The notes beneath the pieces are model-generated. The model ran no database searches, had not been told where the DNA came from, and saw nothing but the letters and a program-made list of their open reading frames with translations. Shown here piece by piece: positions 2,080 to 37,071 of a stretch of 64,000 bases of DNA. The position numbers and the translations under genes were made by a program. Numbering within the stretch: the first letter of the stretch is position 1; each line of letters starts with the position of its first letter. This stretch comes from a virus, in IMG/VR virus record IMGVR_UViG_3300035696_000017, positions 32,001 to 96,000 of that record; one strand, written 5' to 3'.

Positions 2080-3141
2080 TCACGGGTGCAATCCGCAGCC
2101 ACCGCCATCGGGTCCGTTGACCCACATCTGTTGGACCAAGAAGTCGCGATCGCCCCAGTGCACGTTGGCACGTGCGCCAGCGTCAGTGACGTAGGTCGGT
2201 TCGAACCGCCACACGCACATGTCACCGATCTCTTGTTCTTGGAACTGATCGAACCAAGCAGGGTCGCTGGAGACCAGCGGGTCCGTCGTTGCCTCGCACA
2301 TCTCGTGGACCATGACAGATGCCATGCCGTCAGCGCTCCAATCGTTGTTGGGACTGGGCGGGAGACCGCCGTCAGCTGGCAACGAGGACAGGGCTCCGAG
2401 GACGGTGCAGTTGGTGTAGCATTGGGCCGGGTCACCGACGAAGGCGTACTTGATCTGGTTTCCCTCGTACGTTGTTTCGTCATGGTAGCCGCAGTAGGTG
2501 CCGCAGAAAGTGTCACCCTCGTCGTCCATCGTCTCAGTGACGTCTGAAGACGTCAGGACATAGTAGATCGCGTCGGTGTCCGCGGGCAAGCTGCCCGCTT
2601 TCAAGGCATCGGTGACGATGCCTAGCACGTCACCCGCCATCAGGTTCTTGCCTCGGGTGTAGCTGACGCTGATGCTCTTGACCAACGCAGGCTGTCCCGT
2701 GGCGTAGGTCTTGGCGGCGTCGGCGACGCCGCCGTCAGCAGGTTGCGGCGTCTGGTAGTACCCCGTCAGGATCTGGGAGTACGGGGTGCCCCCGAAGCTT
2801 GTCAGCATGTCTTCCAGGATTGTAGGCGTCAGGTTGTTCGACCAGTCACCGTACCAGATGATGTAGAGGTGCGGAATGCTGGTGATGATGGGCCCGCCCC
2901 AGTAGACGATGGGACCCGGTGCAGGAGGGTAGAAGTCGTAGCCCGTGTCGGGTGCTTCCGCATCGAAGTTGTTGCCCGCATCGATGCCGCCACCATCACT
3001 CGAATCCGTCGTTGCATCGGGACCCAGGGTGTGTCCCGCCTCCAAGAGATTCGCATCGGGTGTCTCACCGGTGATCGGAGGGGTGTTGCCACATGCGACT
3101 ACGAGGGACAGCGTGGACAGGACAGCGAGCGCTCGGGTCAT
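2080..3141 (-). CDS. lipoprotein with PHI-1/EXORDIUM-like domain
   Basis: Lipobox VVAC; motifs YIIWYGDW, FCGTYCGYH, YAFVGD, PNNDWSADGMASVMVHEMCEATTDP, EIGDMC, FLVQQMW match the phosphate-induced protein 1 family as I know it. Confidence 0.75.
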   Translation of the reverse strand: MTRALAVLSTLSLVVACGNTPPITGETPDANLLEAGHTLGPDATTDSSDGGGIDAGNNFDAEAPDTGYDFYPPAPGPIVYWGGPIITSIPHLYIIWYGDWSNNLTPTILEDMLTSFGGTPYSQILTGYYQTPQPADGGVADAAKTYATGQPALVKSISVSYTRGKNLMAGDVLGIVTDALKAGSLPADTDAIYYVLTSSDVTETMDDEGDTFCGTYCGYHDETTYEGNQIKYAFVGDPAQCYTNCTVLGALSSLPADGGLPPSPNNDWSADGMASVMVHEMCEATTDPLVSSDPAWFDQFQEQEIGDMCVWRFEPTYVTDAGARANVHWGDRDFLVQQMWVNGPDGGGCGLHP

Positions 3142-4204: not shown

Positions 4205-4630
4205 TCAACCCTCTTCCTTCTTACACTCCTCTCGGACCTCCATCAGGATCCGGCCCAGCCAGTTGCTGCCCCGGCCCCGGCAGACGCCCCAGAACGTGTC
4301 GTTCCAGGTGTTGCCCTCGACCAGCTTGGCGTCCTCGGTGGCGATGAGCATCGCCCGGAGGATCGGGTTCTTGAACTTCTCCCGCACGAACTTGCGCATC
4401 AGGTCGACCTTGACCTCGTCCCAGTCGGGACGGAGCTGGACGGCCTTGCCCAGCTTCTTGGCCTCGCCGGGGCGAGCGACCTCCCGGATCAGCTTCCGGG
4501 TCGCGGGGTCCAACGTCTTGGCGGCCTGGTAGGCGTGCTCGACTGAAGGGTACCGCTCTCCATCGATCCAGATCGACGCTTCGTGGAAGTTGCTCAGGAA
4601 GCCGAAGTCGCCCCGGAAGCTGTCAATCAC
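4205..4630 (-). CDS. NADAR (YbiA-like) family protein
   Basis: FLSNFH, YPSVEHAYQAAK, PGEAKKLGK, LVEGNTWNDTFWG, GSNWLGRILMEVR; GTG start at 4630 overlapping the upstream stop. Confidence 0.92.
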   Translation of the reverse strand: MIDSFRGDFGFLSNFHEASIWIDGERYPSVEHAYQAAKTLDPATRKLIREVARPGEAKKLGKAVQLRPDWDEVKVDLMRKFVREKFKNPILRAMLIATEDAKLVEGNTWNDTFWGVCRGRGSNWLGRILMEVREECKKEEG

Positions 4631-5294
4631 CGTCTCGGTCTGCGACGGGGACCCAGGAAGCGTCGGGAGCTGGGGTTGTTGTAGTTCCGTCAGCTTCGAT
4701 AGAACGTCGGATGGCTGCAAGGAGTTCTTCTTCTCGTTGTCGTTGCTCAAGTTGGTCCTCCGGGATGAGCTTGGTGATCGCCTCGGAGTAGCAGCGACTG
4801 AAGCCGGGTGCGTACTCGTCGAGACTCGCCTCGAAGTAGTTGCAGCGCTTCAGCCTGATCGCTGTCTCGTGTGGGTTGCCCCATTCGAACGAGGCCAGCG
4901 CTGGCTGGCAACGCTTGATGACTTCCCAGTAGGCAGCAGCACCGTCCTCGAAGTCGAAGAAGGCCCGGTACCAGTGCTTGTCGCCCCTGTTGAAGTAGAT
5001 GAGCTGCCCCTGTGCTGAGGCCCCGACGTTGCCGAGGTTGTGGTTGAAGGACCACTTGCCCCCGCCGTTCTCGAAGGCGACCTGGCCCCACGCCATCGCA
5101 AGCCTGCGATCGCTGGGGTACTTGCCGAAGACCTTGAGGTGACCCTCCCGTAGAGCGTGGAGCAGCTCCATCCGGGAGAGCGGAGTGCGCACAGTCGGGA
5201 CGTGTTCCGACGGGTCCGCCGAAGCGAGGGGCGCTGCGGTGGCGATGACGAGGATGAGGATGAACAACGTTGCCAGTCTCTTCGCTGGTGACAT
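4623..5294 (-). CDS. secreted glucosaminidase/lysozyme-like cell wall hydrolase
   Basis: Signal peptide; GQVAFENG (catalytic E), HNLGNV, YRAFFDFEDGAAAYW, LKRCNYF resemble FlgJ/GH73-type folds. Confidence 0.6.
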   Translation of the reverse strand: MSPAKRLATLFILILVIATAAPLASADPSEHVPTVRTPLSRMELLHALREGHLKVFGKYPSDRRLAMAWGQVAFENGGGKWSFNHNLGNVGASAQGQLIYFNRGDKHWYRAFFDFEDGAAAYWEVIKRCQPALASFEWGNPHETAIRLKRCNYFEASLDEYAPGFSRCYSEAITKLIPEDQLEQRQREEELLAAIRRSIEADGTTTTPAPDASWVPVADRDGD

Positions 5295-5347: not shown

Positions 5348-5893
5348 TCAGGCATCAGGTGCCTTTGGTGGAGTCTCGCCGCCTTGTGGGGACGAACTAT
5401 TTGCACCATCTGACGAGGTGCAGAGCTTCCAGGGCACCCCTGCCTTGACCACGCGGTCGAGCATGTCAGCCGTCCCGCGCGAGTCTTGGATGTTGTTGTG
5501 GAAGGCAAGGCACAGGTCGATGGGCTCTTCGGGCTTGTTCTCCACATCCAACATCTGTTGGTTGCGGATCGGACCCGCGGCTTTCTTGTGCTTCACCCAG
5601 TCGGCCGGGTAGGGCCTGACCTCAAACCGCAACGCTTCAGCGACTGCGGCGCAGATGATGTCTGCACCCCTGCACGCTCCGTGCACGAGTATGGTGCCAG
5701 GCCTATAACCCTTCAACTCTTCGACGACCCGAGTGATGTCTGACCACTCGCGGTCACCGGTGACCAGGATCTTGTGGACGTACTTCTCCGCGGGCAGCTT
5801 CCGGCGTTCTTCCGGATCGCGTTGCGTGTAGTAGCGCCGGTCAGATTTGGTCCGCCTGATGTCGCCCGTTCGTCGCCGTGGTTCGTCTGCCAT
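5348..5893 (-). CDS. SLOG-family (DUF2493/YspA-like) protein
   Basis: ILVTGDREW, LVHGACRGAD, ADWVKHKKAAGPIRNQQML, SRGTADM. Confidence 0.85.
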   Translation of the reverse strand: MADEPRRRTGDIRRTKSDRRYYTQRDPEERRKLPAEKYVHKILVTGDREWSDITRVVEELKGYRPGTILVHGACRGADIICAAVAEALRFEVRPYPADWVKHKKAAGPIRNQQMLDVENKPEEPIDLCLAFHNNIQDSRGTADMLDRVVKAGVPWKLCTSSDGANSSSPQGGETPPKAPDA

Positions 5894-6565
5894 CAGTCCC
5901 AGTCACCATTGTACCACCTCGACAGCCGGCTTTTTACACCCGTCCGGTGATCGGTGACCTGGTCGTCTTGCGTACGATACGTCCGCACCTTGTCGCCTCG
6001 TTGGCCGGTGCCGACCTGCTGCTTGCGTTCAGCTTCCTTTGCAAGACGCTGGCGTTCACGTTCGGCATCGTACAGCCTGGCCGCCATGACCTTCATAGCC
6101 AGGGCCTTGTTCTGGCTCTGGCTCCGCTCGTTGTCGATGCGGACCTGCAACCCCGTCGCCTTGTGGGTGACGATGACGCAGGACTCGGTCTTGTTGCGGT
6201 TCTGCCCGCCGGGACCCGAGCCCCGTGCGGTGGCGATGTCAACGTCCTGGTACGTCAGCTGCTTGCCGACGACGGTGTCAGGATCGAAGACGGCGACAGT
6301 CACCGTTGACGTCTGGACCCGTCCCCGCTTCTCAGTGGGAGGGATCCGCTGCCATCGGTGACCACCGCTCTCGTGCTGGAATGTCTGCTTGGCGCCCGTG
6401 CCTGAGAAGGCGACGGTGACCATGCCCGGTCGCTCGTCGATCAGCTCAGACTCAAAGACCCCTCCGCGACGCCACGTTGGCGTACGCACGGAGCTGTTCC
6501 TTGACCAGCAGCTTTGCGTCGTCGCCGCCCTCGGCGGCTCGGATCTCGATGATGACCGTTTCCAT
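5893..6565 (-). CDS. class I peptide chain release factor lacking domain 1, expressed via +1 programmed frameshift at 6457-6452 (about 223 aa)
   Basis: Frame 0 from ATG 6565: METVIIEIRAAEGGDDAKLL..RRGL-TGA; +1 frame continues ESELIDERPG..HRWQRIPPTEKRGRVQTS..SGPGGQNRNK..RSQSQNK..VRTY..VTDHR. Confidence 0.9.
6451..6466 (-). promoter_or_regulatory. RF2-type +1 frameshift cassette (internal SD GGAGG, 3-nt spacer, CTT TGA)
   Basis: Minus strand CGGAGG GGT CTT TGA G; same layout as bacterial prfB (AGGGGG TAT CTT TGA C). Confidence 0.88.
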
Positions 6566-6568
6566 GTT

Positions 6569-7015
6569 TCAGACCCCGGAAGGAGGAGCGTAGTGCTCCT
6601 CGAGGATGGTGCGGTACACCCGCATATTCGGGTGGTATCGCTTGAAGAAGTAGGTGTCGTCTCCCGTCCAGATTTTCGAGAGGGCGGCGCCGACGGCCGG
6701 CGAGCGGCTCAGGCCAGCGTCACAGTGGACGATGAAGCGTTGGGCCTCAGGGTACGTCTTGACGAGAGCCAAGATCTGGCGCGCTTGGCTAGGCTGGAAG
6801 AGGTCGGACTCGAGCTCCTCGATCCCGGGGAAGTGCTGGTCAAGATCGTGGAACGTCAGCCTCAGGATCTTGAGAGTGTGTTCGTTGGTCTTGATCTTGG
6901 CGCCCTCGGGCAACGCGGGGTCGCCCGGCGTCGTGATCGACACGATGATGTGCGGGACCTCGTGGGGCTCGATCGCCTCGATGGCCTGCCTGCTGTAGAC
7001 GAAGATGTCCTTCAT
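6569..7015 (-). CDS. predicted protein tyrosine/dual-specificity phosphatase
   Basis: CX5R loop VHCDAGLSRS; IVSIT and LRLTFHD motifs. Confidence 0.85.
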   Translation of the reverse strand: MKDIFVYSRQAIEAIEPHEVPHIIVSITTPGDPALPEGAKIKTNEHTLKILRLTFHDLDQHFPGIEELESDLFQPSQARQILALVKTYPEAQRFIVHCDAGLSRSPAVGAALSKIWTGDDTYFFKRYHPNMRVYRTILEEHYAPPSGV

Positions 7016-7320
7016 GGCTCCACGGCAGTCAGGATACCATAGACGTGGTCGAGCTTGCACCACCCGTTGACGTGTCCGTGGTTGTTGCTGATCTGGTACC
7101 TGCCATCGCTGCCGATAGCAGTGACCTTATGAAGCATCTGCTGGCCGTTGACCTTGCAGAGCACTGCGTCCCCCACCATGGGCACACGCCCGTTGAGAGG
7201 CTCGACAGTGACCAGCTGGCCCGACTCGATGATGGGTCGCATGCTGTTGCCATGAGGCCTGAATTTGACCGTCTTGCCCTCCTTGAGGGCCTGGACGTGT
7301 GTCAGTGTTCCGTCTCCCAT
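7012..7320 (-). CDS. S24/S26 peptidase-like protein
   Basis: GNSMRPII..GD.VL..LHKV. Confidence 0.7.
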   Translation of the reverse strand: MGDGTLTHVQALKEGKTVKFRPHGNSMRPIIESGQLVTVEPLNGRVPMVGDAVLCKVNGQQMLHKVTAIGSDGRYQISNNHGHVNGWCKLDHVYGILTAVEP

Positions 7321-16168: not shown

Positions 16169-16786
16169 TGTTCAGCCCTTCGCTGCGAGGATGCAGCCTC
16201 CGATGTTGCCCAGGATGAGGAAGACGACCATGCTCCATCCCATGAAGGCCCAGGACGGCGAGTGGATCGCCATGCACCAAGCCACGATGAAGAGGCCCCA
16301 GAAGAACATTGCCCCCATGGACCCGACCATGCTGCCGACTACGTACTTGAACCCCTTTGGGAATAAGAGCCAAAGGCCGATGCAGGCACCCGCTGTCCAG
16401 AGCAACTCCATTTGTACATCCTACCAGGACTAGGCCGCGGCTTGCACCCGGATCTTGCGACCACGATTGATGGCATTCCCGAGGCATTCGACTGAGCCAC
16501 AGTGGCAGTCGAAGTGTTGGATGTCGTGAGTGTAGCCCTCGCGGTTCGCTTGCGCGTGCTTTACCGCCTCTTCCCAGCGAATGTGTCGCATCCGAGACTG
16601 GGGCATGAAGGCCCGACCACAGCGACTGATGTGCATGTGCCGACGGTCGCGTTGTCGGAGCCACTTCGCTGGCGTCTTTCGCTTACGTTCCATGTTTTCC
16701 TCAGCGCCGGGTGGTGGATGCGATCCACTCTTCGAGCCTTCTGGACGTCTCCAGGGACCCACCCTTCGGGGCCTACCAAGCGTTCG

Positions 16787-16857
16787 TGCGACGTATGGGA
16801 TTCGGACCCATGTCTCCGGGCCAACGCCCGGTGTCCTGTCCGCTAGACGAATGTCGC
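16787..16857 (-). tRNA. tRNA-Glu-like gene with aberrant anticodon loop (no assignable anticodon)
   Basis: Glu-type D arm and acceptor; anticodon arm CCGGGC-GTTG-GCCCGG. Confidence 0.6.
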
Positions 16858-33169: not shown

Positions 33170-33183
33170 ATGTGTTGTCGAGG

Positions 33184-33252
33184 TCGCTCCGACTGGACTC
33201 GAACCAGTGGCTCCCGCTCCATGGTAACGGGTGTCCGCCGAGATGCGGAGCG
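33184..33252 (-). tRNA. atypical tRNA-like gene (CAT) with vestigial D arm
   Basis: Acceptor CGCTCCG/CGGAGCG-A, arm CCCGTT-ACCATGG-AGCGGG, T arm. Confidence 0.55.
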
Positions 33253-33254
33253 AT

Positions 33255-33353
33255 CGTCACGTCGAACGGAATCGAACCGTTGCTCGTAGTAGCAGCCGCG
33301 AGCCTTTCACAGGATTCTGTGTTTTTCTACGACCTTTCCTCGAACGACGTGAC
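33255..33353 (-). ncRNA. tRNA-like RNA without D stem and with a branched arm replacing the anticodon arm
   Basis: GTCACGTCG/CGACGTGAC stem, T arm AACGG-TTCGATT-CCGTT, helix TCGTAG/CTACGA. Confidence 0.6.
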
Positions 33354-35287: not shown

Positions 35288-35317
35288 TGGGATCGTGACC
35301 GTGGTTACTTGCAACGG

Positions 35318-35388
35318 AGCCCCCGCTTGGAGTCAAACCAAGACCTTCGGGCCGCAAGGCCCGACGCTCTGCACTGAGCTACGGGGGC
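35318..35388 (-). tRNA. tRNA-like gene with sealed anticodon loop
   Basis: Normal acceptor/D/T arms; TCGGGCC-TTGC-GGCCCGA. Confidence 0.6.
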
Positions 35389-36756: not shown

Positions 36757-36839
36757 TGGAGCGTAAGGGAGTCGAACCCCTCGGGGCATAAGCCGCCTGG
36801 GTTACAGCCAGGCCCATCTCCGTAGTGGTCTACCGCTCC
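36757..36839 (-). tRNA. tRNA-Tyr(GTA)
   Basis: Type II, loop CTGTAAC. Confidence 0.85.
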
Positions 36840-37071
36840 ATGCGGTCTGTGTCAGTGTCTTAAACGTCGAATGCCGAGGAACTCTTTCTTTCCTCGGCAA
36901 CCTCGTGGGGCTTCTCTTACCCTACTCAGTCGCTTCGGAAGCTCGAAGCGACAGGGTCGCTTCGTTCACGTATCGCGGGCTGCCGCATTGGCATACTGCC
37001 AACGCTTCTGATCCGCCTGTTGAACTTTGACTTGGGTATTCATGATGACTGTCTTTTGGGACTTGTCTTCG

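Follow-up and report, generated by a model that had tools for sequence, protein, structure and literature searches.

The +1 frameshift at CUU-UGA is the textbook case of a gene that measures its own product, and to our knowledge a +1 frameshift switch in bacteria is known for release factor 2 (RF2) only; we know of no frameshifting in prfA. Among the shorter GGQ proteins, PrfH (RF-H) is an RtcB-linked factor for damaged ribosomes, and ArfB has a GGQ domain, a basic C-terminal tail and no decoding domain. In prfB the cassette is made of a Shine-Dalgarno (SD)-like element, three nucleotides and CTT TGA C, and it acts as an autoregulatory +1 frameshift (PMC12421855; PMC5009743). A 2025 survey of 12,753 genomes found this motif in 8,164 prfB genes, with TAA as the stop in 1.4% and TAG in none; no programmed frameshift turned up in prfA (PMC12421855). 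A 2016 review had set the early in-frame stop of RF2 genes beside a UAG counterpart in RF1 genes, which it gave as unknown. In viruses, the class-I release factor gene of Mimivirus and Megavirus has its own stops passed by frameshift and readthrough (Jeudy et al. 2012, PMC3521657), and this giant-virus factor was the only gene cited in the 2016 review as combining the two. Additionally, the TGA-recoded Jade phages carry an RF1 in a 'code-change module', for which no frameshift or in-frame stop was reported (Borges et al., 10.1101/2021.08.26.457843).

Here we describe, from a huge phage of peat soil, a prfB-like device that is conserved in a new family of genes for short RF1-type factors. This variant is real and apparently unpublished; a full-text literature search found no published description of a short RF1-type family or of an RF1-type +1 cassette.

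Anatomy of the locus

The window, by which we mean the whole 64-kb stretch of DNA that was analysed (GC about 61%), covers bases 32001-96000 of a 114-kb IMG/VR viral contig that is 31% complete according to CheckV. This contig is collinear, at 70-80% nucleotide identity, with a complete phage genome of 369 kb with terminal repeats (G001). The features of the short release-factor gene and of the gene that follows it are:

6455-6565, minus strand: ORF1, frame 0, from the ATG at 6563-6565 through 37 codons to Leu-37 (CTT, 6455-6457)
6461-6465, minus strand: internal SD-like element GGAGG, extending as GGAGGGG to 6459, in the Arg-Arg codons CGG AGG
6458-6460, minus strand: spacer GGT, 3 nt, between the SD-like element and CTT
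6454-6457, minus strand: slippery CTT-T, the Leu codon CTT (6455-6457) and the first base of the stop
6452-6454, minus strand: gate stop TGA in frame 0, with G (6451) as the next base
5896-6453, minus strand: ORF2, +1 frame, 186 codons, with the remaining decoding domain, the GGQ domain and the C-terminal part
6334-6342, minus strand: PPT tripeptide in place of the PxT of RF1, within the invariant HRWQRIPPTE
6202-6210, minus strand: GGQ, the catalytic motif for peptidyl-tRNA hydrolysis (invariant G82 G83 Q84 of the second piece)
5893-5895, minus strand: terminal TGA of the factor gene, base 5893 being common with the next gene's ATG at 5891-5893 (TGATG)
5348-5893, minus strand: SLOG/YAcAr-family protein, whose ATG overlaps the stop of the factor

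The initial annotation had placed the start at ATG 6565 and had described CTT TGA preceded by GGAGG and a 3-nt spacer, with the GGQ in the +1 frame; all of this was found at those positions, and the sequence anatomy supports its claim that expression depends on a +1 shift at a cassette of the prfB type. Frame 0 ends as CGG AGG GGT CTT TGA G (6451-6466, minus strand), the first codon of the +1 frame is GAG (6451-6453) and this frame closes at the TGA at 5893-5895, so that one 4-base step at CTT-T gives a joined product of 223 residues, while zero-frame readthrough of the gate meets a further TGA one codon on. ORF1 encodes the strand and helix bearing IEIRAAEGGDDAKLL. According to Pfam, the PCRF domain is split between the two pieces (profile positions 101-134 on ORF1 and 153-194 on ORF2) and the RF-1 (GGQ) domain lies on ORF2 (2.5e-28). 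The 14-nt cassette pattern GGAGGNNNCTTTGA occurs once in the 64-kb window, where shuffled sequences give an expectation of 0.01.

The locus therefore resembles prfB in its early in-frame stop, in the CTT before that stop, in an SD-like element three bases upstream and in a main reading frame in +1. However, the gene is of the RF1 type and not RF2, and its site comes after helix alpha-5 of the decoding domain, opposite RF1 residue 140/141 and around position 150 in the prfB model, and not at codon 26 in domain 1, which means that the two sites are not homologous.

Evidence for a real gene

The only observation that speaks for a gene broken by a 1-nt deletion, or for an assembly error, is that the source is a single contig of modest depth (6.9), and we regard the chance of either as negligible. 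The 1-nt assembly error that the initial annotation had considered was not seen: three further peat metagenome runs, which come from different samples and studies, yielded contigs that span 6452-6457 with identical letters, without a difference or a gap. The uninterrupted homologues that it had also considered amount to only 3 of 84 distinct relatives, and 61 distinct genes are interrupted at the same codon and carry stimulatory elements. Furthermore, substitutions among the relatives follow the codon positions of frame 0 upstream of the site (53, 34 and 130 at positions 1, 2 and 3) and those of the +1 frame downstream of it (104, 72 and 232), so purifying selection acts on both frames, and for practical purposes both an assembly error and a dead gene can be dismissed. 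We also rejected a second start within the +1 frame, since in several relatives this frame is already closed 6-11 codons ahead of the site and has no space for a start of its own.

In three peat runs, more abundant contigs match only the 35 bases at 6450-6484 of the window, with 2 differences, one of these contigs being 5.2 kb long with a depth of 27. Other short factor genes of the same peat community thus appear, from these matches, to share the cassette almost letter for letter. Among 50,697 phage records, blastn found nothing similar to the locus, and no RNA run was found to contain it.

Predicted product and its relation to RF1

From its sequence, the product is predicted to be a 223-aa class-I release factor of the RF1 type without domain 1, in agreement with the initial annotation on both counts. 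The joined protein aligns with residues 107-320 of Thermus thermophilus RF1 without a gap at the junction and scores 158.7 bits, as against 137.8 bits for the second piece alone. ORF1 aligns to residues 107-140, with G13 and D16 on G116 and E119, a region that we take to be the reader of the first base of the stop codon, and the junction RRGL|ESEL falls on EMGF|ETEV of RF1 residues 137-144. On ORF2, the PPT aligns with the PxT of solved RF1: the Q, the P-P-T and the T of the family fall on Q181, P184-V185-T186 and T194, and the equivalents of Q181, P184, T186 and T194, presumably the readers of the second and third bases, are invariant in the family. The family departs from RF1 at three positions of the decoding site: Glu119 is replaced by Asp, the middle residue of the PxT is Pro, and Trp precedes Gln181. 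As all the residues with which RF1 reads UAA and UAG are kept, the product most likely terminates at UAA and UAG and not at UGA. In this regard, work on tripeptide swaps is said to have pointed to the Ser of RF2 at the position that admits G as second base.

The likeness to RF1 extends to the whole chain. The short factor has a PxT-type loop, the GGQ, the equivalents of Gln181 and Thr194 and 37-38% identity with prfA products, and the AlphaFold model of the joined product (pLDDT 82.6) superposes on ribosome-bound RF1 with a TM-score of 0.84-0.85 and an rmsd of 3.0 A, a little better than on RF2 and better than on PrfH (0.63). It differs from prfA products in being about 105 residues shorter, by the lack of domain 1, in carrying Asp in place of Glu119 and in forming a separate clade. 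Its NCBIfam scores (prfA 218, prfB 137, prfH 101.5 and ArfB 23 bits) are all under the curated cut-offs, including those of the RF1 equivalogs (217.9 bits versus 400 for NF001859 and 207.9 versus 423 for TIGR00019). The ArfB match is confined to residues 103-133 and, unlike ArfB, the short factor has a decoding domain. A separate gene for domain 1 was considered and rejected, since positions 1-93 of the PCRF profile have no match in the contig of the window; they were likewise unmatched in two complete related genomes.

A family of short RF1-type genes and their gates

A scan of viral contigs yielded 40 related loci, mostly on contigs of 50-467 kb. About 45 more came from prokaryote genomes, scanned with one representative for each species; these are mainly Myxococcota loci, some of them on complete chromosomes, those of Archangium gephyra and Minicystis rosea. 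Neither HRWQRIPPTE nor GGQ varies across the family. In a quick IQ-TREE analysis, of which we relied only on branches with SH-aLRT of at least 95, the short factors group in a single clade, which a long branch with full support sets apart from canonical RF1. Five complete related genomes, 362-467 kb in size, contain no other gene with an RF-1 domain; in five Myxococcota genomes the short gene accompanies two full-length factors. Because gene callers overlook the true start and report a shortened protein, the family is hidden in databases.

The conservation of the cassette in phage homologues, which the initial annotation had proposed to check, is clear. In 61 of 85 distinct genes, from huge phages and Myxococcota genomes, CTT and a stop lie exactly 32 codons past IEIRAAEGG and a +1 shift is needed. 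CTT precedes the stop in all 61; the exact GGAGG with a 3-nt spacer is present in 28, and a match at four of its five bases in 12 more (40 in total); codon -3 is CGG in 45 and codon -2 is AGG in 34. The stop is TGA in 42, TAG in 18 and TAA in one. The rarity of TAA and the C that follows the stop in 50 of the 61 are shared with prfB, whereas 18 TAG gates here stand against none in the 8,164 prfB genes, and the gene of the window has G after its stop.

Gates are found at three different codons across the family. Besides the majority site there is a second one, CTT TGA C, which lies ten codons later and is seen for instance in Thiobacillus and Achromobacter contigs that are rich in tRNA genes and resemble prophages; the third, in AT-rich phages, reads CTT TAG C. 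Other members have an in-frame TGA or TAG within the same stretch of 20 codons, sometimes two. In the AT-rich loci L031, L033 and L037 (at about 3001-3130) an in-frame TGA is followed eight codons on by an in-frame TAG, and their sister gene in L030 has TGA at both places, so that the type of stop changes at one column.

TGA and TAG gates flip between close relatives, with at least 8 changes forced by well-supported branches, and TAG gates are no more clustered on the tree than in shuffles. In the AT-rich relatives TAA makes up about 80% of gene ends, yet their gates are only TGA or TAG. What is selected and conserved is therefore an early stop that just one release factor reads. Moreover, since the gate stop flips while the decoding loop is invariant, a sensor of a host factor fits better than a sensor of the product.

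Genetic code of the phage

Gene calls in this DNA are crude and GC3-based; taken as such, they bear out the remark of the initial annotation that many genes end in TGA, which closes 68 of 89 called genes in the window and 108 of 148 (about 73%) in the contig, where TAG closes 27 and TAA 13. When TGA stops were aligned with G001, 17 of 18 remained TGA, one was a sense codon and none was TGG. TGA is thus a genuine stop in this phage, which uses the standard code, and recoding of TGA to Trp was rejected. Under codes that treat TGA or TAG as sense, coverage by long ORFs was uninformative, since random open frames inflate it in GC-rich DNA. A cross-genome tblastn for in-frame stops, of low power with genomes this diverged, found them only in wrong frames and in the release-factor gene. 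The phage resembles the Jade phages in encoding an RF1-type factor, which in its relatives occurs together with suppressor tRNAs, but differs from them in having TGA as its main stop and no recoding.

Proposed regulation of the short factor

The reading that we prefer, to which we give a probability of about 0.5, is that a kinetic gate read by the RF2 of the host controls an RF1-type factor, which would be cross-regulation and not the self-regulation of prfB. Ribosomes would begin at ATG 6565, translate 37 codons and pause once CUU occupies the P site and UGA the A site; GGAGG three bases upstream would meanwhile pair with the anti-SD tail of 16S rRNA. Fast reading of UGA by host RF2 would release a useless peptide of 37 residues; at slow reading, we infer, tRNA-Leu would slip from CUU to UUU, and translation would continue in the +1 frame and yield the complete factor. 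The phage has a tRNA-Leu(GAG) gene of its own, whose product can decode CUU through wobble pairing. In the window the gate stop is UGA, which in contrast to prfB is a stop that its product is not expected to read. As the product would read UAA and UAG rather than UGA, such a gate would report the UGA termination capacity of the cell, at a codon that ends about three quarters of the phage genes, and an RF1-type factor independent of RF3 would be released when that capacity runs short. Under cross-regulation, the UAG-gated relatives would be the true self-regulators. The initial annotation had offered two explanations, a factor that reads UGA despite its PxT and regulates itself, or a back-up switched on when RF2 activity falls. 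The sequence evidence leans to the back-up, because the gate stop alternates between UGA and UAG without any change in the RF1-specific decoding residues.

The weak point of this cross-regulation is that low RF2 would induce a factor blind to UGA, which would repair little: UAA and UAG end only about 27% of the phage genes, which puts the benefit of the factor in doubt. The level of the factor would, in addition, be uncontrolled in such a scheme, which has no feedback. It also counts against this reading that the next base here is G, not C as in prfB and in 50 of the 61 relatives, and that the family departs from RF1 at the three decoding-site positions named above.

Feedback would be restored for all gates if the short factor read UGA as well as UAG and UAA, each gate then sensing its own product as prfB does. 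We consider this unlikely, even though one invariant decoding loop serves UGA and UAG gates that flip between close relatives, the gene is the sole release-factor gene in complete phage genomes whose main stop is TGA, a gate that opens at slow UGA termination makes most sense if the product reads UGA, and the family-specific changes (Asp for Glu119, PPT and Trp) sit at the decoding site. The tripeptide with Pro first and Thr third and the equivalents of Gln181 and Thr194 are nevertheless the pattern of RF1, and nothing in the decoding loop is RF2-like. That the PPT loop and Asp for Glu119 together make an omnipotent class-I factor reading UAA, UAG and UGA is doubtful; if true, huge phages and myxobacteria would carry a self-regulated, RF3-independent termination system in a single protein, and every gate of the family would be a true feedback sensor. 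About as improbable is a fixed attenuator, in which the stop would act simply as a slow codon and the cassette would set a low, constant yield of a factor harmful in excess. The interchange of TGA and TAG, in a 42:18 ratio near the genomic stop usage, would agree with this, as would the lowered fitness caused by overproduced release factors (PMC12421855). A weak start site or promoter would, however, serve this end more simply, even the AT-rich relatives avoid TAA, and gates at three codons and in the form of in-frame stops point to selection for a stop codon as such.

A codon-independent rescue of ribosomes, as by PrfH or ArfB, is considerably less probable. The short factor shares with PrfH a length of about 200 residues, a GGQ domain and the lack of domain 1, TIGR03072 aligns with it end to end, and tmRNA is present in related phages. 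Nonetheless, its 101.5 bits are well under the PrfH cut-off of 166.65 (TIGR03072), its fold is nearer to RF1 (TM 0.84) than to PrfH (0.63), and its stop-reading residues are invariant, whereas PrfH has no stop-codon tripeptide. PrfH, moreover, adjoins RtcB, and the short factor has no RtcB partner: no RtcB gene was found in the contig of the window or its complete relative G001, nor in G004 and G005, and in G002 it lies 60 kb from the factor gene. A PrfH-RtcB pair was accordingly rejected, and the action on non-stop complexes that the initial annotation had suggested finds no support, the stop-reading residues being all kept and an RtcB partner missing. The chance is similarly slim that the gate is controlled in trans by phage tRNAs of the UCA type with enlarged anticodon loops, through quadruplet reading of UGA and the next base or through competition with RF2. 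This idea draws on the two tandem tRNAs of G001 with 8-nt loops, in a genome whose gate is UGA-A, on their orthologues in a 436-kb phage, which are tRNA(UCA) with closing pairs unpaired, and on a tRNA(CUA) that lies 13.6 kb from an in-frame TAG gate in one phage. Against it, the fourth base of the gate is mostly C and here G, a mismatch with UUCA; a matching tRNA is missing in two of the five complete genomes and from the contig of the window, which represents 31% of its genome; and zero-frame readthrough would run into the second TGA described above. That UCA- and CUA-type tRNAs of the complete relatives could also act at the gate nevertheless counts against the RF2-read cross-regulation that we prefer.

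The same device has been built independently, at another place, in an RF1-type gene. In its family UGA and UAG are used interchangeably and an in-frame stop replaces the frameshift gate in some relatives, which offers a natural way to tell whether the cassette senses the product or the termination capacity of the cell. Huge phages, with their near-complete tRNA sets, would in this way also control their own termination factor, and the cassette could serve as a compact, portable sensor of RF1 or RF2 activity. The closest viral parallel is the Mimivirus and Megavirus factor, likewise a virus-encoded termination factor with an interrupted gene, and some relatives of the short factor also combine frameshift and readthrough; however, that factor is of the eukaryotic/archaeal eRF1 type and belongs to an amoeba virus, sequences and hosts being unrelated.

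Suppressor-type tRNAs, tmRNA and neighbouring genes

The complete relatives carry several unusual tRNA genes. G001 (L127-L145) has an amber-suppressor-type tRNA(CUA) at 36781-36856, a tmRNA at 265088-265457 with the tag ANDNGFADDVRLAA, and two tandem tRNAs at 336639-336792 whose 8-nt anticodon loops, AUUUCAAC, contain UUCA; its gate reads CTT TGA A, and an anticodon UUCA could pair with this gate over four bases. The part of the genome expected to hold this tandem pair lies outside the contig of the window. In the 436-kb genome G002 (L146-L167), which has no sign of TGA recoding, a tandem tRNA(UCA) pair at 139122-139296 is orthologous to that of G001 (88% and 76% identity) and has non-Watson-Crick closing pairs in the anticodon stem; a tmRNA lies at 141433-141807 and the RtcB gene at 69276-70397. 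The 467-kb genome G003 (L206-L229) has a tRNA(CUA) at 195861-195937, 13.6 kb from its short factor gene, where the gate is an in-frame TAT TAG at the codon at which others frameshift, and its own tRNA(CUA) could open this gate. Of the remaining two, G004 has a tRNA(CUA) only and G005 no suppressor-type tRNA. Additionally, a tRNA-like gene with an 8-nt anticodon loop ('taag') is found at L008:395-472, 2.5 kb from a frameshift-gated short factor gene.

The factor gene of the window lies inside a tRNA array, as it does at 24 of the 40 phage loci. There are 48 tRNA genes in the window (3274-37145, minus strand) and 58 in the 114-kb contig, close to a full set. Further neighbours of the factor gene, all on the minus strand, are a NADAR-domain protein at 4205-4750, a protein weakly like dual-specificity phosphatases at 6569-7063 and an S24-peptidase-like one at 7012-7320; together with the SLOG/YAcAr-family protein, they are conserved in the three closest relatives only. 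Over 92 loci, no conserved protein-coding neighbours were found beyond the closest three relatives, and apparent 'clusters' of neighbours were discarded as other frames of the release-factor gene itself. In contigs of Myxococcaceae and Polyangiales (L051, L053 and L055), genes for tRNA-Tyr and tRNA-His lie 150-400 bases upstream of the chromosomal short factor gene and may mark an integrated element. Lastly, three tRNA-like calls in the window have 6-nt anticodon loops, at 16786-16857, at 33182-33273 (92 nt, with a long extra arm) and at 35316-35388.
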